Shown one piece after another: positions 1-15,271 of a stretch of 19,219 bases of DNA (positions are counted from its first letter, which is position 1; the number at the start of each line of letters is the position of its first letter). Source of the DNA: a virus; the UHGV virus genome UHGV-0267650. One strand, written 5' to 3'. A model generated the notes under the pieces. The model did no database searches. It was not told the origin of the DNA and saw only the letters and a program-made list of their open reading frames with translations. Both the position numbers and the translations under genes were made by a program.

Positions 1-119
1 CGTAACACTCCCTCACCGATCCATTTATCAAAGAGTGATTTTTCGAATGCGTCTTTGAAAGCATCGATCATTGTTACCTGCCAATGCCCGTACCGATTTT
101 TAAGTCGGGCATCGGAAAA

Positions 120-1045: not shown

Positions 1046-2749
1046 TCAGGCAATAATGTTCTGGTACTTGCTCCGGGTTTCTCCGGCTTTCGTGGCGGTC
1101 TGCGTGAATGATGCCGCATTGGTCGGTGTGCCGACGCTGGGGTGTGAGTGACTGGCGCACTGCCTTGCCAGTTCTGCCAGTAAATCAATGGTATCCAGCA
1201 TCATGGTCAGGGCGTTGATACTCTCGCTGCCAATATGGACAGTTGCCCCCATGACCTGCTGACCGCCAGTGGCCACCGATTTACGTAATGCGGCAATCTT
1301 TTCTGTCAGGGTTCCCCCCACATCAACATCCACGGTGCCGGCTACTTTCGTGGATTGTTTGCCAGTTATATCGGCTTCGTCATTCCCCTCAATGCTGGCC
1401 AGCCTGTTACCTTTCACCGCCTGGCTATAATCACCGGCGCTTACCTGCTGGATGGCTCCGGCCAGCAGTGTGGCGGTTCCCAGTACCGTAGTTTTATCCG
1501 TGGCTTTCACCGTGGTTTCACGGCTGACCAGTTCGCGCTGTTCTGTATCGGCTTTTACAGTTCGCACCATTGATGTTTCGCTGATGGTCTGATCGGTCTG
1601 CCTTACCCAGTCCCCCGCCTGAGTCACTCTCTGGGATACTTCTTCCCGCTGCTGCTGTAATTGCTCACCGGGTTTAACGTCCGGCAGACTGGTGCCATCC
1701 GGTAGCGTCTGCCTGATAAAGGGTTTATCCGGTCTGCCTCCTGTGAATGCGACCTCAACCAGCGTCCCTTCTGGCGGGAACTGAAACATACCTGAATCAT
1801 TCCCGGCCATTGGTACCGGCAGCGGCACCGCTGAATAAACAGGCGTCTGATTGTCCGGGTTTCCGTCTGCGTCAAGCAGCTGAACGTCCACGGCGTAACG
1901 TGGACGGAAGGGATCGGCAAAGTTACCGCTTTTTACCGGCTCTGAATGCGCCACGACTCTGGCCATCTTTGGCAAATGAAGCCCGGATGCCAGTTCCGGG
2001 TAATGGCTTTCAATCTGCCGTTGCGCCGGTGTTTTCTGCAAAGGTTTACCCGTTGCGCGGTTTCTCGGCGTCCATGTGATCGCCATCGTGTCATTCGTCA
2101 GGTGAACTTTAGTCACGCGTTCACCGTTCATCTCCACCCCTGGCCGCATAGTCTGGATCACTGGTAATGTCACAGAGTTACCGCCAGCAGCCCCCTGGCT
2201 GAACTCTGACGGGATTTCTACGGGACGACCGGCAAATAATGACTTTTCTGCGCCGCCGACGTAAAGCGAACCATCAGGCAACTGGTACCAGATGTAATCC
2301 AGGATACTGAACGCCCTGCCCAGATTGTTCAGCAACTGATAACCTGTACCGTTATGGGTAAAATGTGGGATGGGGGTATCGCTGTACTGTGCATCAGGCA
2401 CACTGACCGTGATCCCGCTGTTTTCTTCCAGCCAGCCCGCAATTTCACGCAAAGTCGGGTGTTGAAACGAACATGGCCACATCCTTTCAAACACACCTAC
2501 CAGCTCACGAATGAACAGACGCTGAAAACCTTTTTCCGCGGGCTGCGATCGCTCCACATACCCCGTAAACCAGCGCAAAAGCAGATCGGTATACCCCACA
2601 TCCAGCCGCACCAGTTTTCCGGTGTAATCGGTTGTTGTCTCTGCGGTGATGAAGCCCCGGCCGCAGTTGTTCAGCTCCAGTACCAGGCTGGCGTCCGCCA
2701 TGTGAACTTCATCCGTTGAAAGGTAAAGGCGTTTTACTGGTTTCATCAT
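1046..2749 (-). CDS. Baseplate central spike protein: gpV-like OB-fold and apex in the C-terminal half, with a ~300-aa N-terminal extension of unknown identity (possibly hub-like)
   Basis: 567-aa ORF, last gene of the operon. Residues ~321-345 PPEGTLVEVAFTGGRPDKPFI resemble the OB-fold motif of P2 gpV as I recall it (PSVGEQVLILAVGGELDTAFV). Near the C-terminus ASHSHPSVGTPT resembles the gpV apex motif HTHKHPGDSGGTTGSP. Its start codon overlaps the stop of the upstream ORF. Confidence 0.6.
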   Translation of the reverse strand: MMKPVKRLYLSTDEVHMADASLVLELNNCGRGFITAETTTDYTGKLVRLDVGYTDLLLRWFTGYVERSQPAEKGFQRLFIRELVGVFERMWPCSFQHPTLREIAGWLEENSGITVSVPDAQYSDTPIPHFTHNGTGYQLLNNLGRAFSILDYIWYQLPDGSLYVGGAEKSLFAGRPVEIPSEFSQGAAGGNSVTLPVIQTMRPGVEMNGERVTKVHLTNDTMAITWTPRNRATGKPLQKTPAQRQIESHYPELASGLHLPKMARVVAHSEPVKSGNFADPFRPRYAVDVQLLDADGNPDNQTPVYSAVPLPVPMAGNDSGMFQFPPEGTLVEVAFTGGRPDKPFIRQTLPDGTSLPDVKPGEQLQQQREEVSQRVTQAGDWVRQTDQTISETSMVRTVKADTEQRELVSRETTVKATDKTTVLGTATLLAGAIQQVSAGDYSQAVKGNRLASIEGNDEADITGKQSTKVAGTVDVDVGGTLTEKIAALRKSVATGGQQVMGATVHIGSESINALTMMLDTIDLLAELARQCASHSHPSVGTPTNAASFTQTATKAGETRSKYQNIIA

Positions 2750-3294
2750 TAACCCAAAGCATCATTGACGGGCTTCAGCACCTTGCGTTCAAACCACGTC
2801 AGTTTTTCTTCATCCTCTCCGGCAGACTGGCCACCGGACTGTCCCGCACTACCGGCAGTTTGTTTTTTTGCGGTCGTCTTACCTGTTGCCCTGGCCTCTC
2901 GCTTTTCCTGCACGCTGATATGTTCCGCCAGTGTGAATGTCACCAGCCAGGACATTTTCCCGTCCTGCTGGGGTGCATCCAGCATCCCGCTGAACGTTGC
3001 TTCACGAAAATTAACAGCACGGGCAACTTCATGCGCCACGCGGTACTTCTGACGATTACCACTGGCATCGGTAGCACTGGCCAGCTCAAAAATACGCTTG
3101 AGTATTTCAGGCTGTTTAAAAGGTATTTCCCCGCTGATCCGCAGTTCCTTTCCCTTTGCTCCCTGCTCTGATTTTGTTGTGGCGCTGGTCTGGCCGGACT
3201 GATCTTTATCCTGAAACTGCTGTGAAACAGTCACCCGCATGTTTTTCAGCTGGATGGCCTCGCCATTAAGCGCCAGTGTCGGGATCGAAGTCAT
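2749..3294 (-). CDS. Hypothetical protein within the tail operon (181 aa), function unknown
   Basis: Long - strand ORF packed between neighbours; overlaps the upstream ORF by 29 nt and shares position 2749 with the start of the spike gene. Contains a low-complexity Q/S/T/G/K-rich segment. No family recognised. Confidence 0.45.
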   Translation of the reverse strand: MTSIPTLALNGEAIQLKNMRVTVSQQFQDKDQSGQTSATTKSEQGAKGKELRISGEIPFKQPEILKRIFELASATDASGNRQKYRVAHEVARAVNFREATFSGMLDAPQQDGKMSWLVTFTLAEHISVQEKREARATGKTTAKKQTAGSAGQSGGQSAGEDEEKLTWFERKVLKPVNDALG

Positions 3295-3991
3295 GAATCA
3301 TTCCCTTTATTCCATCAAGATTATCGCCAACCAGCATCATTGCAGCGGTGTACACGGCAGACTGCTGCGGAATGTCCTCCACCAGTTCCAGTAACGTGGT
3401 GCCGGTGTCTCCGCTGGCAGTAAAAACCCACGCTCTGGCACTCTTCCCCTGTAAATCATTCAGGCCGCTGGCCACATCACTGATAAGCTGGTCACGCATC
3501 TGCGTGAACTCGCCCAGCTGTTTTTTCAGCCCTTCGATATCAAACCCGGCACCCGCCGCCTTTTGTGCCTGGCTGATTGCCGCAGCAGATAAAGCTGCCC
3601 TGCTGGTTGGTACAGACAACGGAATGGGCGCAGGTAACGCAGCGGCGGTTTTCGCAGGGATCTGCATCTTTTCAATAGCCAGCGCTGCGGCGGATTGCGC
3701 CAGCCGTTTGACCTGTGTGAATGCCGGGGCGGGGAAAATCCCGACCAGGTTATTCAGGCTGGCCATAAAGTTTTCCTGTGTCTGTCCGGTGACCATCATA
3801 ATCACCACGTCCACATTCCCCCCTGTTCCGGCCAGGCGTTCAGCAAGATAGCGAACAGCATTAACCGGGCTGAGATATGCCCCGTTTGCTGTCTGCTGTC
3901 CCAGCCCATAAATCCACGGATGCGCAGGGACGATCGAACAGTTCAGCGCAGCAACAGAATCCGTGAAGGCCAGACGTGCTTCACGCCACAT
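3266..3991 (-). CDS. Hypothetical protein within the tail operon (~241 aa), function unknown; apparently two domains joined by an Ala/Pro-rich linker
   Basis: The ORF track gives 3266..4027, but the ATG at 3991 is preceded by GGAGG at about -9, so I prefer it as the start. It overlaps the Tfa stop by 11 nt. Ala/Pro-rich linker AAALAIEKMQIPAKTAAALPAPIPLSVPTSRAALSAAAIS. No family recognised. Confidence 0.45.
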   Translation of the reverse strand: MWREARLAFTDSVAALNCSIVPAHPWIYGLGQQTANGAYLSPVNAVRYLAERLAGTGGNVDVVIMMVTGQTQENFMASLNNLVGIFPAPAFTQVKRLAQSAAALAIEKMQIPAKTAAALPAPIPLSVPTSRAALSAAAISQAQKAAGAGFDIEGLKKQLGEFTQMRDQLISDVASGLNDLQGKSARAWVFTASGDTGTTLLELVEDIPQQSAVYTAAMMLVGDNLDGIKGMIHDFDPDTGA

Positions 3992-4568
3992 TTCCAGGCA
4001 CCTCCGGCCACACAATTTCCGGCGCATCTTCCGGTTGAATACGATTCAGTAAAACGCGGAATTTTTTCCATGCAGTAAGCAGTAGCGCTTCTTCTTCGGT
4101 CGCCATGTCAAAATCAACGGCATCCTGCAATGTGGCAATGGCATCATTGGCCTGTTTAAGCAGTCTTTTCTTTTCGGCGTCTGCCTCGCTGACTAATGCA
4201 ATTCGCATGGCCTCCGCATCATCCATCCACGCCTTACCATTCCATTTTTGCCAGGCATTAGCCGGTGCTGACGTGGTTGTCCCTTCCGGGTAAGCGCCTG
4301 GCTCGGTGATCACCAGTTCATTACCGTTTTCTGTATCAAACACCACCTCACCACGGTGATCCTCACGGGAAATCCATCTTTGCTTCTCTGAATCAAAAAT
4401 CGCCACAAATCCCGCTTTGATTGCCGGTGGCTTTATCGTGGTGCAGTTAGCTGGCAGTCCGGTATGCGCAGGAATAAAAGCATCACCCGAACCAATAAAT
4501 TCATTCGTATCGGAACGCAGGTTATAAACAGTAACTGTTTGATCGGTTTCACTCATTTTAAAAGTCAT
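3981..4568 (-). CDS. Tail fiber assembly protein (Tfa / P2 gpG-like chaperone)
   Basis: 195-aa ORF immediately downstream of the tail fiber gene, sharing position 4568 with the fiber stop. Size, position and general sequence character fit the tail-fibre assembly family; called from memory, not from a search. Confidence 0.6.
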   Translation of the reverse strand: MTFKMSETDQTVTVYNLRSDTNEFIGSGDAFIPAHTGLPANCTTIKPPAIKAGFVAIFDSEKQRWISREDHRGEVVFDTENGNELVITEPGAYPEGTTTSAPANAWQKWNGKAWMDDAEAMRIALVSEADAEKKRLLKQANDAIATLQDAVDFDMATEEEALLLTAWKKFRVLLNRIQPEDAPEIVWPEVPGNVA

Positions 4569-6142
4569 TATGCGAGTCTCACTATGTAGTTAAATGCAAT
4601 ATTCTTAACGGTCGTTTCTGCGTTGCCCGACGCGACGACGGTAATGGTGTGACTGTGTGCGCCAATGGCTACGGTATGAGAGTGAGCGCCAATACCTACG
4701 GAGTGATTATGTGCGCCAATGGCTACGGTGTGCGCGTGGTTTCCCGCTGAACTGGTATTTACGGTATATGCAGTACCACTTCCGCCTGCTGATCTGGCTA
4801 TTCCTGAACCATCAGTGCCTCGCGTGGTAAAACCGTGTGCGTGCGCCCCTGTCGTATTTGTCGTTTTTGTACCGTGGTCAAACGTACTCGCCGTTTTAGT
4901 ACCGTAATCAAATGAGGATGTTGATTTCGTTCCCAGATCGGTACTTGATGCACTGGCAGTGTGAGCATGGGATTTATTGCCATCATCTTCACAGGACAAT
5001 ACTGCGCGGCCATCTGGTTTTCCTTTGATTGTCTGGCGGCGCATGTCAGTAATAACACCCGATGGATACGCAGCAGCCAGCAAAGGATATGCCGCTGTAT
5101 TAAAAGACTGCCCTTGCATAATTGCCCATCCAGTAGGTGGGATATCTGTTGGCCAGGGAAGCGGCACACCAACCGGCAGAACATCACTACGACTTAAAAC
5201 GGCCAGTTCACCCAGATCCAGGCTTTTTCTTGCCTTTACCTTGTCGTTAACATCAGCAAGGTTTGCATCCTTACGCAAAAAATCGATGCTGGCCTGCTGT
5301 TCTCCCAGGTTACCTTTTGGCCGTAAATCCGTGATGTTGCCATCCACATCAATGCTGGCCACCGCAAACACGTAATGCTGAACCCCGTTCTGAACGTAAT
5401 CAGCAAGATTTGCTGCCACCGTGATTTTGCTCTGCACATTCCAGACACTAGTCAGTGTCCCTGTCCAGCACACATCCAGCCAGACTTTTACCGGCTTTGT
5501 CGTCACCGTAATATTCTGGTTCGCTGCCAGTGACGCACGAAGTCCAGCCACATAACCCGTGCCTTTCGTGACAAAAAACTGATTGCCGGTTTTGGCTACC
5601 AGATACCCGTCACCAAAAAACGCCGCCGCGCCATAAATATCCATATTTTCCAGGCGCTGGCGCTCATCCATTCCGGCCATACGCGCGGTGAAATCAATCT
5701 GCCAGGTTTCAGCAGGCGTACTAATCCCGGTTTCCGTCTGTGCGCCGTTGTACTCCATCAGAAACGAGCGGGTCAGCACGTTTCCCTGTTGCCCTTCTTT
5801 TGTTTTCAGTTTCTGCTGTGATGGTGCATGGACAATCATTGCCAGCGTACCGCTGGCCTTATTGAGCAGACCGATCCAGTTAAAACTGAAATCACCCACA
5901 TCTGCGCCCAGCACTACGGAATAAACCACCCCATTTTCATTCACCACACCCGTGCGGGTAACAGCCTGCCGGTGAACAATCTGTGCTGTCGGGGGTAACA
6001 CTTCATTACGGTCAACAGGTGTATCCGGGTTTAAATCCGGCACACTGGCAAATACAAATTCGTCCAGTAGTACCGGTTCACCCGTAGCGCCCTGTTGCGC
6101 TTTCCAGTTTTCAAATGCCAGTGTGATGGCTGTCTGTGACAT
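4568..6142 (-). CDS. Tail fiber protein (P2 gpH / Mu gpS-like N-terminus; His-rich repeat C-terminal tip)
   Basis: 524-aa ORF with AAGGAG about 8 nt upstream of the ATG. The N-terminal ~100 aa resemble the conserved N-terminal domain of P2 H / Mu S fibers. The C-terminus carries tandem 11-aa repeats rich in H-x-H ([32 protein letters not shown]), and the gene is followed by a Tfa gene. Confidence 0.75.
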
Positions 6143-6152
6143 AAAAAACTCC

Positions 6153-6758
6153 TTACAAACTCGCGCTGAATGCTGCGCTGCGGGCTTCCGTCCCTGCTAA
6201 CATCGCCGGATAAACCACATATTCCCCCTGATCCCATCCGGCTCTGATGGCCAGTTTTTCCGATGTGATCACCTCAAACTGATAGCGGCGGCATGTTCGT
6301 CCGTACTGGCGGATTATCTGGATCAGCAGTTGCGTGTTGTCTGCAATCTGGCTGTCTGTAACCCGAACCAGAATCACATCCCAGTCGATATCCGGTTGCC
6401 GTTCTAACAGCTCCACATAACCAATTCCCAGCCGTTCAAAGATATTGATAAACCCCTCTACTGAACCGGCATCCCGCGCATTCACGAAGGCAAAAGCCAC
6501 GCGTTTGCGGAACAGGGTCAACGGTTCACCATCAAAGCGGGTAATATCCCGGTCATAAGCCAGCAGGTTCAGTAATGCCGGTGTACACGTCAGCGGATCA
6601 AACTGATTCACTGGCCAGATAACCCAGCCGTAAACCTCAGCCCAGAACCGCCGCGCCGTTTTCAGCAACTTGGCCGGCTCCCCTTTGTTCATCCAGGAAG
6701 GAAGCACCATCCCGGCCAGCTTTTTCAGGAACTCACTCATTTTCAATAACCACCGCAA
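6153..6758 (-). CDS. Baseplate/tail protein, P2 gpI-like (Mu gp48-like)
   Basis: 201-aa ORF directly downstream of the J-like gene, in the position of P2 gene I. The real start may be the internal Met (MSEFLKK) at 6740. Weak resemblance to P2 gpI as recalled. Confidence 0.55.
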
Positions 6759-7917
6759 GCGATTTCAGACGCGGCACACTCAGTTCACTGGTGATGTCGC
6801 CCAGCGAAAAAGACAGTGATTCCGTCTGCGCAAAGGTTTTATGAATTTCCCGCCCCAGTTGAGAAAAGGAAAACCGCGAATATGGCCACGTCTTCCTGAC
6901 GTCATAATCAGCATTCTCACGAAAGGCACAGCGGATCATGTTTTCCACCCCGTCTTTCAGGGTTTTCCTGTCCTCATCGCTGAAATTGGCCAGATTTTTG
7001 ACATAAACCGTGACGGACAGATCATGAAGCGTTTCCGGCATGGGATAGCACTGCATATCATCACCGTGGCCGTGATGCCCCTGCGTGTTGATATAGTCAT
7101 TGACGGCATCCACGAACGGCGAAGAAGCCACCCCGCTGTCCAGCAACAGATACGCGTTGGCGGTACCGGGTCCCCTCGGCGCTTCATGTTCAAAGAAAAT
7201 CCGGTCAATACTCAGCCCTGCAACGCCGGCAATCATTGACCGGTAAACGGCGTCAGTGTGGTAATTCCCCACCAGATTGAACTGATTGCGGCAGCGTTCG
7301 CGCAGCTCATCATCACTTTCTTCATCCGCGCCCGGTACGGTCAGCCAGTTTTCTTCGCTGGTCACGTGGCTGATACCGTCAACGGCAACCGGCAGAATGC
7401 GGTAATATCCCGGCGCAAGGTTATATGCGCCCCCGGTGCCGGTGGCTTTCACCGGCAGTAATGCGCTGGCCATACCGGAAGCGATCACCACATCCTCACT
7501 GGTGGCCAGCTCATACACGCGGCCGTTAATGCGCTCTGTCTGGATAATCGTCCCGGCTTTCACCGTCACCACAGCTTTTGCATCTTCTTTGAAGAAGCGG
7601 ATCACACCCTGTGCAGCGCTCGCCGGTTTTGCCGTGACGTTCACCGCCCACGCCAGCAGACGCAACATGCTCCCGCTGGCTGTGGCCACAAACATATTGG
7701 CCAGCACGGTGAATACCAGAACGTCTTTCAGCCACATCACTGGTGCGGTCACAATGGCGGTGATTAACCGCCAGAACGGTGACATGCGGGACGTATTGGT
7801 GATAATCCCCTCGTCAGCTGCAATCGCATTAAAGCGATCGCGAACCTCAGATTCCGTCACCGGCATCCCGCTGGCTTTCACCACTTCTTCAAAATCAACC
7901 TGGGGCTTTTCCGTCAT
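6733..7917 (-). CDS. Baseplate J-like protein (P2 gpJ / Mu gp47 family)
   Basis: The ORF track gives 6733..7971 (412 aa). I prefer the ATG at 7917, which overlaps the upstream gene's TGA in an ATGA junction, giving ~394 aa. Size and position (after the gp46/W-like gene, before the I-like gene and fiber) match baseplate J. Confidence 0.65.
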   Translation of the reverse strand: MTEKPQVDFEEVVKASGMPVTESEVRDRFNAIAADEGIITNTSRMSPFWRLITAIVTAPVMWLKDVLVFTVLANMFVATASGSMLRLLAWAVNVTAKPASAAQGVIRFFKEDAKAVVTVKAGTIIQTERINGRVYELATSEDVVIASGMASALLPVKATGTGGAYNLAPGYYRILPVAVDGISHVTSEENWLTVPGADEESDDELRERCRNQFNLVGNYHTDAVYRSMIAGVAGLSIDRIFFEHEAPRGPGTANAYLLLDSGVASSPFVDAVNDYINTQGHHGHGDDMQCYPMPETLHDLSVTVYVKNLANFSDEDRKTLKDGVENMIRCAFRENADYDVRKTWPYSRFSFSQLGREIHKTFAQTESLSFSLGDITSELSVPRLKSLAVVIENE

Positions 7918-8243
7918 AAGTCCACCTGATATGAAAGCGTGCCAAAATCGTATGTGCTCGCGGTCACCCACAGCCGTTTCTGGCTTTCTTCACTGATTTC
8001 CACCGTTCCCGGCACAATGCGTTCATCGTTTTCAACCAGTAATTCCAGTTGTGTAAAAATATCTGCCCTCAGTGTCGGACTGCGTTCCGCAATTAATTGC
8101 GTGGCTAATCCGCTCTCAATAATGGCGTGAATAATGTCCTGCCCGATACTTTTTCGGTTATTGCATAATTCAGGCTCATTACCGGCATTTAATGAAAAGT
8201 CACCATTCTCAATAAGCAGGTCAATATAAAGGGCTTCACTCAT
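7914..8243 (-). CDS. Small baseplate protein (Mu gp46 / P2 gpW-like wedge component), tentative
   Basis: 109-aa ORF immediately upstream of the J-like gene, with its start 4 nt inside the tape measure 3' end. Size and position fit gp46/gpW; the sequence-level call is from memory only. Confidence 0.4.
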   Translation of the reverse strand: MSEALYIDLLIENGDFSLNAGNEPELCNNRKSIGQDIIHAIIESGLATQLIAERSPTLRADIFTQLELLVENDERIVPGTVEISEESQKRLWVTASTYDFGTLSYQVDL

Positions 8244-10207
8244 ACACCCAGCTCCTGATATTCCATTAACTTGCCGGGCGACATCATTTCAGTTGGATAA
8301 ATATTCACCGTATCAATTCTGCGGCTGTTATCCGTTACTGATTTAGAATTACTACTAATTGTTTTACTGATACCGCCTTTATCAACGCCTTTTAATTCAC
8401 CGCCAGTAGAAAGGGTATTCGTTGTCAGTGCTGGTTGAGATTCGTTCGCCAGTGAAATATCGACGCCCGGAATTTTATTGAGTTTTCCGACAATCCAGTT
8501 CCACGATTTCAGGAACCCGCCTTTGATGGTCTGCCAGACGTTATCAAACAGGGAGACAATCCCGCTGGCCATGCCGCTTAGCGCCTGTGACGGTGAAAAG
8601 CCGGTCAGCAGCGCAATAAAGCTGTTCCAGCCGTCCGTGATCCATTGCCACGCCGCGGAAAACACGCCGGCAAGCCATTCAACCACACCAGCCACGGCGG
8701 TAAACGCTGCCGTATTCATCACCGCCGCTTTCACATCATCCCAGTGTTTAATCAGCAGATAACACCCGGCAGCCAGCAGAGCAATCGCCCCGATAACCAG
8801 CAGAACCGGCCAGCTCATCAGGTTGATGCCAATACCGGCCATAATCGCCGCCATACGCACGGCCAGCAGCGTACCCCGCAGGAATTTCAGCGTCAGGTTC
8901 CACGCCACAACAGCCTTTGAGGCAATCCAGACCGTGGCCGTGTAAAACTTCGTGACCAGCGTCAGGGCGCTCCAGAGTCCCTTCAGTCCCACCAGGATAA
9001 ATTTTGAGACGCCCATGACAATATTTGTCACCGCGCCCGCTGCCGCCACGCCAAACAGCGCAAGTTGCACGTAACCAATCACCCGCGCAATGTTGGGAAA
9101 CATCTGCATCCAGCGTCCGAACGTCTGCCCCATATCGGCCAGGCGGTTCAGTACCGGGTACAGAACCGGGATCAACGTCAGTCCGATCACCGTCTGAATG
9201 GCTTTAAGGATTTGTACAAAGCGATCCCACGGCCTGACCAGCTTCCCGGCCATCTCCTGTGTACGCTTCAGCCCGTCAGAGCCGCCCAGTTCGGTGATAT
9301 TACGCTGCAGTAACGCCACATTGCCGTACAGATGTTTTATCACCGCTGAACTGTCACCAAATGCCGCATCCAGCTCCGCCTGGGCTTTCAGGTTCCCTTC
9401 CAGGCTTTTGCCGTATTTGCCCTGCAGCTTGATCAGCATTTCAGGCATGGACAGCATTTTGCCGGTGGAGTCCGTAAAGGACAGCCCAAGCTTTTTAGCG
9501 CCCTCTATCGCGCCGGTCATGAAACCTTCGTAAGCGCTGCTGGCCTCTGTTCCCAGCGTACGGTTGAGCTGTCCCAGCACCGCCAGCTGTTCATCCAGCC
9601 CGACGCCGTAGTTGGTACCGACCCCCCGCGCCCCTTCCATCAGGTCTTTAATGGTACCCATTTCGGTACCGAAGACCTTGCGCATATACACCATTTTTCC
9701 CGCCAGTTGCTCAGCGAACTGGACTTTACCCAGCCGCGCCGCATCGTCGGAAAAGTTACCGTACATCTGCCCCATGAACTCCGCCGTGTCGGCGGATGTG
9801 GATTTTAGGGCAAATGCCAGCGTATTAGCGACCTTCGTCACTCTCGGCAGCTCGCTGGCGGTAAGGCCGGCAATGGACGCGTTAATGTTCTCTGTGGATT
9901 TGACGAACTCCACCGCGCTGGCACCGTAGGTCATGCTGAACCGGAGCGCGTCACGCTGTACGGTCTTTAATGCCTGATTATCAATCCCTTTTGCGGCGGC
10001 ATCATTCAGCGCGTCGTACATTTCGATAGCCGGCGATAACGCGCCTTTTATGGCCATTCCCGTGCCAACCAGTCCCAGCACGCCGCCACCAATCTGCGAA
10101 AAGGCCGCTTTTGATTTTTCCGCAAAGCCGGTGACGCTGCCCTGCGCCTGTTTTAACGGGCGCGTCAGCTTATCAATCAGGCTTAATGTAAAATCTAACT
10201 GTTTCAT
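8240..10207 (-). CDS. Tail tape measure protein
   Basis: 655-aa ORF, the longest in the tail module. It is Ala/Gly/Leu-rich with helical N-terminal repeats and hydrophobic segments in the C-terminal half, and sits directly downstream of the chaperone/frameshift pair. Its ATG overlaps the stop of the frameshift extension. Confidence 0.8.
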   Translation of the reverse strand: MKQLDFTLSLIDKLTRPLKQAQGSVTGFAEKSKAAFSQIGGGVLGLVGTGMAIKGALSPAIEMYDALNDAAAKGIDNQALKTVQRDALRFSMTYGASAVEFVKSTENINASIAGLTASELPRVTKVANTLAFALKSTSADTAEFMGQMYGNFSDDAARLGKVQFAEQLAGKMVYMRKVFGTEMGTIKDLMEGARGVGTNYGVGLDEQLAVLGQLNRTLGTEASSAYEGFMTGAIEGAKKLGLSFTDSTGKMLSMPEMLIKLQGKYGKSLEGNLKAQAELDAAFGDSSAVIKHLYGNVALLQRNITELGGSDGLKRTQEMAGKLVRPWDRFVQILKAIQTVIGLTLIPVLYPVLNRLADMGQTFGRWMQMFPNIARVIGYVQLALFGVAAAGAVTNIVMGVSKFILVGLKGLWSALTLVTKFYTATVWIASKAVVAWNLTLKFLRGTLLAVRMAAIMAGIGINLMSWPVLLVIGAIALLAAGCYLLIKHWDDVKAAVMNTAAFTAVAGVVEWLAGVFSAAWQWITDGWNSFIALLTGFSPSQALSGMASGIVSLFDNVWQTIKGGFLKSWNWIVGKLNKIPGVDISLANESQPALTTNTLSTGGELKGVDKGGISKTISSNSKSVTDNSRRIDTVNIYPTEMMSPGKLMEYQELGV

Positions 10208-10652: not shown

Positions 10653-10938
10653 AAATAACGTTCTCTCTTAAATTAATTTCATCAACAAGCGCGTTATGCC
10701 GTGCAGCACACTGCCCGTATAACTCCAGATAAAGTGTCAGTAATTCCGCCGCGTCTTTTCCCTGCGTTCCACTCAGGCGCGGCAGCTGCGTGGCGCATTT
10801 AGTTTTCAGGTTTTCCTGATAACGTACGTTCGGTACTGGTGACGGCGTCGTTGTACATGCGGACAAAGTCATCAGACAGACACTTATTGGTAAATACCGG
10901 CTTAACCACTTCCGTGCGGATTTCACGCGGTGGCGCAT
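10639..10938 (-). CDS. o-spanin (outer-membrane lipoprotein, Rz1/LysC-like)
   Basis: 99-aa ORF that starts inside the i-spanin gene in another frame and extends beyond it. It has a signal peptide with lipobox LSAC followed by a Pro-rich segment (TTTPSPVPNV), typical of o-spanins. Confidence 0.6.
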   Translation of the reverse strand: MRHRVKSARKWLSRYLPISVCLMTLSACTTTPSPVPNVRYQENLKTKCATQLPRLSGTQGKDAAELLTLYLELYGQCAARHNALVDEINLRENVIYGKN

Positions 10939-11131
10939 TTTTCAGTGCCTCCAGTTTGTCTTCCAGCCGGCGACCAGATGAACCGGCAATTTCAGCCAGT
11001 TGTTCCCCGGTCGCGGTGACCGCTTTTGAGACAGTCAGATCAACACTGTCCCGCTGCCAGCCGGCCGTTTTCCAGCCGGCTATAAATGCCAGAGCAAGGG
11101 TGAATAACCAGCCTGACACGACGCGATCCAT
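10799..11131 (-). CDS. i-spanin (inner-membrane, Rz/LysB-like)
   Basis: 110-aa ORF with an N-terminal transmembrane segment (VVSGWLFTLALAFIAGW) followed by a charged helical periplasmic region. Lies directly downstream of the endolysin with a 1-nt overlap. Confidence 0.6.
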   Translation of the reverse strand: MDRVVSGWLFTLALAFIAGWKTAGWQRDSVDLTVSKAVTATGEQLAEIAGSSGRRLEDKLEALKNAPPREIRTEVVKPVFTNKCLSDDFVRMYNDAVTSTERTLSGKPEN

Positions 11132-11472
11132 CAGCGCACCCCGTTATGTTCCAGGCTGAAATGATTACCATCAGGGCGGGATTTGAAGCGACCGCCCCAT
11201 GAACCACCCAGCGATTCCCAGTATTCACCCAGCGGCAGATACGCCGCGCTGTCGGTCTGATACTGGCCATTAATGAACAGATTGAAGTCCACGGCCAGAC
11301 GCTGCGTGTGCAGACTGCTGGAAATGCCGCTGCCTTTTTTCGCGTTCAGTGCAGCCTGTTCCGGGGTACGGTAAGCCTCACCAAACGTCAGCCGGTAGCC
11401 ATGTTCTTCAGCCCACTGGATCAGATTTGCCACCATAACGGTAAAGAGTTGCTGTTTTTCGCTCAGAGTCAT
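11131..11472 (-). CDS. Endolysin, peptidase M15-type (L-alanyl-D-glutamate peptidase-like)
   Basis: 113-aa ORF containing SLHTQRLAVDF and DGNHFSLEH, consistent with the H-x(6)-D...H zinc-binding signature of M15 phage endolysins. Flanked by a holin and spanins. Confidence 0.7.
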   Translation of the reverse strand: MTLSEKQQLFTVMVANLIQWAEEHGYRLTFGEAYRTPEQAALNAKKGSGISSSLHTQRLAVDFNLFINGQYQTDSAAYLPLGEYWESLGGSWGGRFKSRPDGNHFSLEHNGVR

Positions 11473-11765
11473 TTCCCTGTCCCTTTATCAAAAATCCCTG
11501 TAAAACCCCGCTTACGCAGCCAGGCTTCCACCACATTCTGTCCCAGAATACCCAACGCGGAGCCAAATCCGGCTAATGCGAGCGGGTGGATATCCGGGAC
11601 AAAGTACAGCGCCACCCCGGCAATCAGTGACAGTCCGCTGCCCACAATGACACGCCCCGCCACCAGGCGAAGGGTGATTGGTTCATCACTGTTGAGCAAT
11701 TTACCCAGCGCAATCAGCGCCCCCATGACTGCCAGTGCAATGAACCCCTTTTCGTACTCCTGCAT
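11469..11765 (-). CDS. Holin (three predicted transmembrane segments)
   Basis: 98-aa ORF with three hydrophobic stretches and a charged C-terminus (RKRGFTGIFDKGTGK). Sits immediately upstream of the endolysin with a 4-nt overlap. Confidence 0.6.
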   Translation of the reverse strand: MQEYEKGFIALAVMGALIALGKLLNSDEPITLRLVAGRVIVGSGLSLIAGVALYFVPDIHPLALAGFGSALGILGQNVVEAWLRKRGFTGIFDKGTGK

Positions 11766-14537: not shown

Positions 14538-14986
14538 ATCATGGCCACCGTAATGCGTTTCAGCCCTTTGATGCGGCGTACTGCCAGTGTGGACTCTGCA
14601 ATCAGGCTGGAGCGGGTTTCGTCACTTTCCTGCCCCGGATGGCTCTCACGGCGACCAACAGAGGCAAACTCGCCCATCAAATCAGCTTTGGCACGTGCAT
14701 ATACCGCTTTGCGATAACGGGCGCACAACAGATTTTCGCCGTCAATTTCCACGCCCGGAACGTGCGCCGCGCGCTCATGGCCAACGCTGCGATACCTTGC
14801 CGCCACACTGACCAGATCATCATTGATTTCGCCGGCTGCAGTCAGCAGCGCCTGGCGGATGGTGGCCGCATCAATATCGGCCGGAATGGTGCGCTGGGAC
14901 TGAAAATCTTTCACGCTCAGGTCAGGCCAGAAGCCATCATTCGTCAGAGTGGCATCGTCAAAATCAATTGAAGTTCCGCTGAACAT
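14534..14986 (-). CDS. L: Head completion/stabilisation protein (P2 gpL-like)
   Basis: The ORF track extends to a GTG at 15025. The ATG at 14986 has a good RBS (GGAGAAACAGG then ATG) and gives ~150 aa. Position after the small terminase gene and sequence character fit gpL. Confidence 0.55.
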   Translation of the reverse strand: MFSGTSIDFDDATLTNDGFWPDLSVKDFQSQRTIPADIDAATIRQALLTAAGEINDDLVSVAARYRSVGHERAAHVPGVEIDGENLLCARYRKAVYARAKADLMGEFASVGRRESHPGQESDETRSSLIAESTLAVRRIKGLKRITVAMI

Positions 14987-15000
14987 CCTGTTTCTCCGGA

Positions 15001-15070
15001 AAAAAGCGGGCTGACCGGTTTCCACGGGCGATACGCTTATGCGATCCCCTCCACCGCGCCCGCTTTCGGG
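15001..15070 (-). terminator. Terminator/attenuator-like structured element with a U6 tract upstream of the L gene
   Basis: On the - strand transcript AAAGCGGGC can pair with GCCCGCUUUUUU, enclosing ~41 nt of internally pairing sequence (GGGCG...CGCCC), and is followed by six U residues. It lies in the 54-nt gap between the 63-aa ORF and the L RBS. Confidence 0.3.
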
Positions 15071-15079
15071 TCGGTAGTC

Positions 15080-15271
15080 TTACTCGCCGCGTTTTGCGGC
15101 CTGAATCTCACCTTCTTCAAACCACGCATCAGATGCGCGACCGTCAGCAGTCTGATAATGGATCAGATACTGATTGCAGCTGTTGGTGTACTCCGCACGG
15201 GCTTTGATATGCCCCTCTTCGCCGCTAATGGAAACTTCAACAACCTGGCCTAACTCATGCTTAAACGACAT
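15080..15271 (-). CDS. Small hypothetical protein (63 aa) inserted between the small terminase and head completion genes
   Basis: ORF with SD-like GGGAG about 8 nt upstream of the ATG, beginning 1 nt after the M-like stop. P2 has no gene at this position as I recall. Faint resemblance to small YodC/DUF2158-type proteins, from memory only. Confidence 0.4.
   Translation of the reverse strand: MSFKHELGQVVEVSISGEEGHIKARAEYTNSCNQYLIHYQTADGRASDAWFEEGEIQAAKRGE

Follow-up and report, generated by a model that had tools for sequence, protein, structure and literature searches.

The solved minimal baseplates of contractile tails (pyocin R2, Pam3, E217, Milano, Mu) have in common a spike, a hub, a tube initiator or centerpiece and a sheath initiator (BW1), and they also share a (BW2)2-BW3 triplex together with an element locking the wedges onto the core. 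P2 gpU itself is small, and Pam3 combines a small hub with a plug that is not of the LysM type. The HP1 subgroup is a large and ancient P2-like branch with genomes of about 29-33 kb, and its contractile tails are among the smallest known. A LysM/gpX domain and a helical-bundle centerpiece domain have been described as conserved in minimal baseplates (PMC10811340, PMC11915804), and the paper on Milano calls the LysM component, 'BW4/glue', universally conserved. Here we analysed two genes of an HP1-type tail in the virus genome UHGV-0267650, a stretch of 19,219 nucleotides referred to below as the window. These open reading frames (ORFs), ORF A (3266..3991; 241 amino acids (aa), 25.3 kDa, isoelectric point 5.0) and ORF B (2749..3294; 181 aa, 19.8 kDa, isoelectric point 9.3), lie between the gene of a tail fibre assembly protein, Tfa (3981..4568; Caudo_TAP, E 2e-33), and that of a 567-aa hub-spike fusion protein (1046..2749; Gp5_C, Phage_base_V). 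Both are on the minus strand, as are all genes in this part of the window and all coding features of the window located below. The order of the genes from orf27 to orf35 in Haemophilus phage HP1 is exactly that of the window tail, and ORF A, ORF B and the 567-aa protein thus correspond to orf33, orf34 and orf35, respectively. ORF A and ORF B therefore belong to known families, and the finding is overall an ordinary structural one. The first-pass annotation had regarded both ORFs as unrecognised, a description which still suits ORF A, but not ORF B, as the latter matches a curated Pfam family.

This family is PF25759, 'Bacteriophage HP1 ORF34 baseplate complex protein', which ORF B matches at E 4.1e-54, scoring 183.4 bits where the curated cut-off lies at 27. 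Residues 6-181 align to profile positions 2-176 of 180, which makes ORF B a full-length member, and the same family is carried by all 120 ORF B homologues among the matches listed. Other members are HP1 orf34 itself, to which ORF B is 40% identical, K139 orf38, Kappa KP44, phiO18P gene 45 and gp47 of the HP1-subgroup Pseudoalteromonas phage ACA1 (E 3e-24); the position of orf34, between orf33 and the hub-spike gene, is also that of ORF B. No other Pfam family was found for ORF B at E <= 0.1, with PF06995 (P2 gpU) not matched, while NCBIfam gave no match for either ORF, and sequence and profile searches of ORF B against PDB chains returned nothing below E 0.09.

An AlphaFold (AF2) model of ORF B, built from a 41-sequence alignment, had a mean predicted local distance difference test score (pLDDT) of 70.9, and its core, aa 1-125, scored near 90. 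The modelled elements begin with three strands and a long loop and continue with one strand, a helix and further strands; this order is the tail-tube topology, and the tail-tube fold was found in the predicted structure of the N-terminal domain. In a Foldseek search with the model, baseplate chains of E217, Mu, PVC and Pa193 ranked first, with a probability of 1.0. The closest solved relatives of the modelled fold are tube-initiator or 'ripcord' proteins of the gpU/Mu N class, so that ORF B is an ordinary structural gene, and it is very likely the tube initiator or baseplate centerpiece of this tail. The fold and the family of ORF B are established here, and we infer the ring described below, its position and its contacts from solved homologous machines.

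In regard to the parts of ORF B, the tube-like domain, a beta-sandwich plus helix, occupies aa 1-125 (2920..3294). It includes a long loop, aa 25-49 (3148..3222; pLDDT <50 at residues 35-45), which the monomer model leaves disordered although it is highly conserved, and in which D31, S33, G34, S37, T39, G45 and K47 are invariant across 8 genera, and this loop may sit at the position of the extended hairpin that builds the lumen of the ring in the tube family. In the monomer model, the core is followed by two predicted helices, 128-140 and 167-180, with a disordered linker between them. The linker, aa 132-163 (2806..2901), consists to 78% of Q, S, T, G, K and A (47% elsewhere in the protein), varies in length through indels in the alignments, and has pLDDT <50 at residues 129-162; low-complexity linkers had been noticed in both ORFs by the first-pass annotation, and they are indeed present in both. 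The protein ends with an amphipathic helix, TWFERKVLKPVNDALG (aa 164-181; 2752..2805; helix predicted at 167-180), where W167, F168, E169, V172, L173, K174, P175, N177 and L180 are invariant in 41 enterobacterial sequences. This helix is kept in Aeromonas and Pseudomonas phages, but it is degenerate in HP1 and absent in K139, and nothing else essential differs between HP1 orf34 and the enterobacterial ORF B proteins. We propose that the C-terminal helix is an anchor, either to the wedge or to ORF A.

Among the described tube initiators (Pam3 gp17, the pyocin R2 'ripcord' PA0626, Pa193 gp38/gp39, Milano gp25 and Mu gp43), with which ORF B would share the tube fold according to the model, Pam3 gp17 offers the closest comparison in layout. 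In its published description, this protein of 182 aa has an N-terminal tube-like barrel and two C-terminal helices protruding to the inner face of the wedge (PMC9942802), and ORF B, with 181 aa, shows the same arrangement of a tube domain and two helices joined by a loop. On the other hand, PA0626, Milano gp25 and Mu gp43 carry helical-bundle and LysM domains of 150-300 aa that ORF B does not have (PMC10811340, PMC11915804). ORF B can be likened to P2 gpU by its position, while similarity of sequence or profile is undetectable: hhalign gave the ORF B family profile a probability of <2% against both P2 gpU and Mu gp43. Related to this, an HHpred search in the study of ACA1 had linked the orf34 homologue to PF06995/P2 gpU at 15% identity (PMC10612066 Table S1), and the fold of ORF B found here supports that tentative link.

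The neighbouring 567-aa protein accounts for both the hub and the spike. Its layout consists of a gpD-like hub from aa 1 to about 258, followed by an OB fold and a gp5-like beta-helix. The beta-helix was matched to that of T4 gp5 at E 2e-10, the OB region aligns to VgrG 365-452, the whole protein matches phrog_2258 'baseplate protein', and the N-terminal part weakly matches phrog_196 'baseplate hub'. The hub is thus the N-terminal part of this protein, and not ORF A or ORF B, in neither of which profile searches found a match to Phage_GPD or gp27-like domains. Of the kinship to gpU, gpD or gp27 that would make the two ORFs ordinary structural genes, what was found is therefore that of ORF B to the gpU class, on the level of the fold, and nothing of gpD or gp27 in either. 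As in the VgrG-like hub-spike fusions (HP1 orf35, VgrG of type VI secretion systems), the beta-helix, OB fold and hub are joined in one chain, whereas gpD and gpV of P2 are encoded by separate genes; the fusion of gpD and gpV homologues in HP1 has been reported before (PMC10612066 Table S1). The window, HP1 and ESSI-2 have the hub and spike fused in a single gene, and ACA1 (locus L091, 15689-17319) and relatives from Methylophaga and Marinomonas (compared loci L092 8250-9877 and L097 8184-9997) have them as two overlapping genes. A VgrG-like protein thus shows a natural polymorphism between a split and a fused form. The hub part, with ~260 aa, is shorter than the about 365-390 aa found in VgrG and gpD (387 aa in P2 gpD). 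ORF A as the supplier of a 'missing' hub domain was considered and dropped as unnecessary, because small hubs exist in Pam3 and in ACA1, where the gpD homologue has 234 aa.

ORF A matches phrog_1677 (PHROG 1677) with E 1.8e-76, and this was its sole profile match. By tblastn it matches orf33 of HP1 and HP2, K139 orf37 and Kappa KP43, with E 3e-12 and 25-28% identity for HP1 orf33, and a hidden Markov model (HMM) of the ORF A family finds HP1 orf33 at E 3e-67, K139 orf37 at E 9e-64, and matches in all HP1-type phages examined. Further homologues are phiO18P gene 44 and ACA1 gp46 (HMM E 1e-18, hhalign probability 97.3%), and members of the family always lie directly upstream of the orf34 homologue. 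The family is small, comprising 186 clusters at 50% identity (E <= 0.001, 1.84 billion representatives searched), and an additional search with the diverse profile added only close, unnamed relatives. In Pfam, neither ORF A nor any of 60 diverse relatives matched a family, and scattered sub-threshold matches (FlgN in 3/60, and others) were rejected as coiled-coil noise. Searches of ORF A against the PDB, with the single sequence and with the profile, gave nothing below E 0.09, and in the PDB copy searched there was no solved structure for either family. The first-pass annotation saw no resemblance of the two ORFs to P2 U/D/X or Mu N/P, and on the sequence level this was borne out, as the hhalign comparison of both family profiles with all P2 and Mu tail proteins left every probability <8%; the top match, 7% between P2 gpR and the C-terminus of ORF A, was rejected.

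The exhaustive search of representatives revealed no informative domain fusions in the ORF A family. The long 'fusion' relatives P0266 and P0274 proved to be deletion joins with spike or Tfa fragments in decayed prophages. A metagenomic relative of 527 aa, P0361, has an unrelated, apparently beta-rich N-terminal domain of ~300 aa before the orf33-like domain, with Ala/Gly/Thr repeats and no match in either Pfam or PHROG; this may be a genuine fusion, or else an artefact of assembly or gene calling. The ~290-aa forms of ORF A from Vibrio and Aeromonas possess an extra helical N-terminal segment of 55-70 aa, which the 241-aa enterobacterial form does not have.

The best-conserved stretch of ORF A in a 39-sequence alignment is the motif HPW-x2-GLGQ-x-T-x-NG-x-YLSP-x-NA at aa 24-45 (3857..3922). 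Among 60 diverse members, which are 19-81% identical, L40 and A45 are the sole invariant columns and N44 is nearly invariant; over the whole protein, full or near invariance is limited to W2, L40, N44, A45 and P208. An enzyme, such as a tail lysin, was rejected because these members have no conserved residue of a catalytic type, and the character of the few conserved residues (W, L, N, A, P) speaks for a structural protein and not for a catalytic one. The motif is followed by a variable linker at aa 97-150 (3542..3703), with 44% Ala+Pro compared to 15% in the rest of ORF A. It holds the conserved motifs MQ(I/L)P and PLS(V/I)PT-R, together with most of the sequence variation in the 39-sequence alignment. 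The model of ORF A is of low confidence, with pLDDT <50 at residues 109-147, and predicts a helix-rich protein with 8 helices. In this model, aa 152-232 (3296..3538) form a long helix (152-180) and a strand-helix-strand-helix unit, which packs against an N-terminal unit of the same kind, and the C-terminal part contains the conserved residues W188, F190, P208, G222 and N224. Evidence for a place in the virion comes from ACA1, where gp46 was detected in purified virions by liquid chromatography-tandem mass spectrometry (2 spectra, 6% coverage), with a spectral count per molecular weight of 0.09, compared to 0.08 for gpW, 0.05 for gpJ and 0.06 for gpV (PMC10612066 Table S2). The ACA1 record accordingly annotates gp46 as 'HHpred match to HP1 orf33; detected by mass spectroscopy'. 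By homology to this distant relative, the only one with such a detection, ORF A may be considered a low-copy virion protein.

When the parts of the solved baseplates are mapped onto the window, the spike and hub would be supplied by the 567-aa protein, BW1 by DUF2590, BW2 by J, BW3 by the gpI-like protein, and the tube domain of the centerpiece by ORF B. The first 125 residues of ORF B would form a hexameric ring atop the trimeric hub, and this ring would nucleate polymerisation of the tail tube around the tape measure. The tail module comprises the tape measure protein, W-like protein, J, I, fibre, hub-spike, sheath, tube, gpR and gpS, and Pfam scans found in it neither a LysM/gpX protein nor a helical-bundle centerpiece domain. 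ORF A could fill the 'glue/plug' role because no other such protein is encoded in the module. It is conserved, low-copy, helix-rich, found in the virions of a distant relative, and always located beside the initiator and hub, and it is the only candidate left for the locking role. It would then most likely lie between the core of hub and tube initiator and the J2-I-W wedges, doing in trans the work of joining the wedges, for which other machines use the helical-bundle domain of a larger centerpiece (PA0626, Milano gp25, Mu gp43), the LysM protein BW4 or the Pam3 plug gp18, and together with the tethered C-terminal helix of ORF B it would fix the wedges to the core until triggering. The location and role of ORF A thus rest on elimination and on gene position. 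That ORF A and ORF B, as orf33 and orf34 of an HP1-type contractile tail, form the central complex of the baseplate together with the hub-spike protein seems to us somewhat favoured by these data, and the suggestion of the first-pass annotation that they are divergent hub or adaptor components holds up in view of the tube fold of ORF B and of ORF A as a conserved partner with a virion-detected homologue (PMC10612066 Table S2).

The more specific role of ORF A as a hub-to-wedge 'glue/plug' is a tentative proposal. The likeness to the LysM 'glue' BW4 proteins (P2 gpX, PA0627, T4 gp53) and to the Pam3 plug gp18 serves as a working analogy only. P2 gpX has ~65 aa, in contrast to 241-300 aa in the ORF A family, and ORF A has neither a LysM domain nor sequence similarity to these proteins: hhalign against P2 gpX gave a probability of 0.2%, and no LysM or Phage_tail_X profile was matched by ORF A or its 60 relatives. 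The predicted mixed alpha/beta core would also be unlike LysM or the immunoglobulin-like Pam3 plug, and no fold similarity to the helical-bundle domains (Milano gp25 141-345, Mu gp43, the C-terminal part of PA0626) was seen, with an ORF A model too poor for a verdict on this point. More speculative still is the idea that in HP1-type tails, which have no LysM BW4/glue, members of the orf33/ORF A family connect hub and wedge as a new class of protein for this purpose, and that contraction is gated by their release; as far as the model can be trusted, such a connector would be an alpha/beta protein of 210-300 aa with a helical arm. Should orf33 indeed replace the LysM glue, the 'minimal baseplate' would be more plastic than currently drawn, and ORF A would represent a previously unrecognised way of locking it.

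Several observations weigh against this assignment of the two proteins. ORF B gives no sequence-level match to PF06995 (P2 gpU) or Mu gp43, the authors of the ACA1 study graded their own HHpred link to gpU as 'uncertain' (PMC10612066 Table S1), and the ORF B homologue gp47 went undetected in the same virion mass spectrometry that detected gp46 (PMC10612066). ORF A is similar in sequence or profile to no Pfam family, PDB chain or P2/Mu tail protein, so that it is placed in the baseplate by elimination only, and the mass spectrometric support for its family amounts to 2 spectra from one distant phage. In addition, the argument from the parts list is suggestive rather than compelling, since gpU is small, and small hubs and non-LysM plugs exist, as in Pam3.

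Other explanations should be considered on this background. ORF B could belong to another tube-fold layer, such as an extra 'baseplate tube' ring or a part of a pseudo-hexameric hub, complementary to the short hub domain of the 567-aa protein, given that the tube fold is common to tubes, initiators, distal tail proteins and hub domains, that the hub part of the 567-aa protein has ~260 aa compared to 387 aa in P2 gpD, and that the Pa193 baseplate uses three different tube-fold proteins (PMC11456595); we regard this as improbable next to the role of initiator. As for ORF A, it might act mainly as an assembly factor, serving the hub-spike trimer or the docking of wedges as a chaperone or scaffold; only traces of it would be carried in virions, and it would have no stoichiometric place in the completed baseplate. 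The helix-rich, acidic character of the protein, its long predicted helix and flexible linker, and the mere 2 spectra in ACA1 virions (PMC10612066 Table S2) would fit such a factor, as would weak matches to FlgN-like chaperones in Pfam (3/60 members, best E 0.007) and an evolution faster than that of ORF B, J, I and the hub. However, the spectral count per mass of ACA1 gp46 equals that of the baseplate proteins gpW, gpJ and gpV, the FlgN matches are below Pfam thresholds and concern just 5% of the members, the ratio of nonsynonymous to synonymous substitution rates (dN/dS) of ORF A is as low as that of J and I, and the tail module already has a tail assembly chaperone (TAC, PF10963), which altogether leaves this explanation unlikely, though the strongest of the competing ones.

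A connection of ORF A to the tail fibre, as a docking adaptor at the wedge's periphery or a second fibre chaperone contributing indirectly to host range, would account for its location directly after Tfa, to which it is translationally coupled, and for its being the most divergent in the conserved block (82-86% identity, compared to 90% for J and 94-96% for ORF B); the relative P0361, with its additional N-terminal domain, could be read in the same way. We nevertheless find it rather improbable, as ORF A remains full length and collinear when the C-terminal half of the fibre and Tfa are replaced or lost, the ACA1 homologue follows a diversity-generating retroelement module instead of Tfa, and in distant genomes a gap of 0.3-1.1 kb separates ORF A from the fibre while it always adjoins ORF B. 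Furthermore, no Caudo_TAP or fibre domain is present in ORF A, and the other fusion proteins of its family are deletion artefacts of decayed prophages. Finally, by analogy with Mu gp43 and its role in DNA circularisation, ORF A could be a 'pilot' or cargo protein that is kept in the lumen of the tube or in the baseplate and enters the host together with the DNA. Its family occurs in virions at low copy (PMC10612066), it contains a long disordered, low-complexity segment, and it adjoins the tube initiator, whose Mu counterpart is at the same time an injected protein (PMC11915804). Yet neither ORF A nor its 60 relatives contain a DNA-binding, enzymatic or membrane-active domain detectable with Pfam, there is no similarity to Mu gp43 and no set of conserved catalytic residues, and, being pure analogy, this possibility appears very remote compared to that of a structural role of ORF A in the baseplate.

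The conservation of the locus is in line with such a structural role. Eight annotated HP1-type phages, representing as many genera of Peduoviridae, were inspected, and the order ORF A-ORF B-hub/spike was found in every one of them (ev239, ESSI-2, SI7, YenM_324, phiO18P, K139, HP1 and phi3), and it was kept in the Pseudomonas phage phi3 although the ORF A homologue there lies in an annotation gap. ACA1 shares this order, and so do 6 out of 7 loci from Methylophaga, Methylobacter, Methylococcales, Marinomonas and an Opitutaceae metagenome-assembled genome, the seventh being a fragment only. It had been suggested that the two ORFs compensate for a rearranged baseplate; instead, this order is the normal, ancient HP1-type layout, and there is no rearrangement. 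Identity to the window over the full length of ORF A is 61% in ESSI-2, 49% in SI7, 42% in YenM_324, 23% in K139 and 28% in HP1, and the corresponding values for ORF B are 74, 56, 66, 45 and 40%. Conservation of the fibre in these five phages is limited to its N-terminal half, and most of them have a partial Tfa or have lost it.

In ESSI-2, YenM_324, K139 and HP1, the C-terminal half of the fibre and Tfa are replaced, and ORF A and ORF B stay collinear. Likewise, these parts were swapped in about 50 of the 80 related viral contigs, where identity is still 82-86% for ORF A, 93-96% for ORF B and 88-92% for the hub. In the same comparison J is 90% identical, and no protein of the conserved block diverges more than ORF A. 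Pfam revealed no Caudo_TAP or fibre domains in either ORF. The mosaic boundary is therefore the junction of Tfa and ORF A: Tfa and the C-terminal half of the fibre form an exchangeable host-range cassette that ends there, and ORF A and ORF B belong to a conserved baseplate block. Since they persist while the fibre C-terminal half and Tfa are swapped freely, neither is a host-range or cargo gene, contrary to one possibility raised in the first-pass annotation. For the engineering of HP1-type tails or tailocins, this means that the fibre/Tfa cassette is exchangeable without touching ORF A or ORF B. In ACA1, an antireceptor and a diversity-generating retroelement (Avd, reverse transcriptase) lie directly upstream of the orf33-like gene (L091 11382-14588), at the site where the window has its fibre C-terminus and Tfa, so the same insertion point hosts very different host-range modules. 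In distant genomes, the gap between the fibre and ORF A is variable (0.3-1.1 kb), and ORF A always adjoins ORF B.

Both ORFs are true coding genes, and not chance reading frames, as they have hundreds of homologues each and low dN/dS against related loci (0.08-0.12 for ORF A and 0.04-0.08 for ORF B), in the range of the tail neighbours J (0.06-0.13), I (0.07-0.12) and spike (0.05-0.06). ORF A starts at the ATG at 3991, with GGAGG 9 nt upstream. A reading of 253 aa from 4027 was rejected, because the MWRE that opens the 241-aa form is also the start in 39 out of 39 aligned homologues (with an extra M in one), which makes this form the real one. The overlapping starts and stops described in the first pass could be read directly from the sequence: the Tfa stop (3981-3983) and the ORF A start overlap by 11 nt, the ORF A stop (3266-3268) and the ORF B start (ATG, 3294) by 29 nt, and the TAA of ORF B and the ATG of the gene for the 567-aa spike have 1 base in common (TAATG at 2749). 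Within 2749-3991, no signal resembling a promoter or terminator rose above chance.

The window itself is ~96% identical to Escherichia phage ESSI2_ev239 (Peduoviridae, genus Evevirus), and it represents an Evevirus-like prophage of the HP1 subgroup of Peduoviridae. According to Pfam, it joins P2-type genes for head completion (gpL) and tail completion (gpR/gpS) to an HP1-type tail with a Phage_HP1_Orf24 tube, a DUF2586 sheath, the TAC PF10963, a tape measure, DUF2590 (gpW-like) and baseplate J, as well as a weak gpI match, a tail-collar fibre and Tfa. From Pfam and the ESSI2_ev239 annotation, the tape measure was located at 8240-10207, the DUF2590/gpW-like sheath initiator at 7914-8243, baseplate J at 6733-7971, the gpI-like protein at 6153-6758 and the tail fibre at 4568-6142, and the gene order of this baseplate operon (4568..10207) is the same in all related loci. 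The ORF A-ORF B-spike block is present in 54 of the 5,426 complete E. coli genomes.

The practical meaning of these results lies in the correction of annotations for genes of the orf33/orf34/orf35 type. In complete E. coli RefSeq genomes, all three genes (ORF A, ORF B and spike) under the match are called 'hypothetical protein'. With orf34 as the tube initiator, the parts list of HP1-type tails is nearly complete, and the orf33 family is the single conserved, virion-associated protein of the baseplate block left over. In public phage records, ORF B homologues go under the names 'adenine glycosylase', 'DNA-binding protein' or 'nucleoid DNA-binding protein', for instance in Yersinia phage vB_YenM_324 (gp34, L002 9698-10243), Vibrio PV94, Salinivibrio SMHB1, Pseudoalteromonas PY3 and Pseudomonas phi3 (L083 6998-7537); in view of the tube fold of ORF B, these labels look like propagated mis-annotations. 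The RefSeq record of phi3 (NC_030940) has no annotated orf33, and the family HMM matches an open frame at L083 6084-6998 (E 1e-40). In Cronobacter phage ESSI-2 (L086, NC_047854), several 'hypothetical proteins' are annotated antisense to tail genes, e.g., at 14841-15203 on the minus strand, and one of them spans the ORF A/ORF B junction. Considering the strong purifying selection on the sense frames, these antisense genes look like over-calls.

A few further features of the window can be added. A lysis cassette (holin PF04550, M15 peptidase endolysin and Rz-like spanin) at 10799-11765 is placed inside the tail operon, with the tube gene on one side and the tail assembly chaperone on the other, as is also the case in HP1. 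An ORF of 63 aa at 15080-15271, labelled hypothetical in ESSI2_ev239, matches PHROG 8618 and is flanked by the small terminase and gpL head-completion genes. No tRNA was found in the whole window. Matches to E. coli chromosomes start at position 96, and the end of the ESSI2_ev239 genome maps downstream of the spike gene, at a distance of ~300 bp; the phage end or a prophage junction is therefore probably located in the left end of the window (1-95 and about 1-740). Finally, the C-terminal part of the fibre (4568-4800) ends with a His-rich repeat, which shows a weak match to the Phage_fiber repeat and may be a metal-binding motif of the fibre tip.

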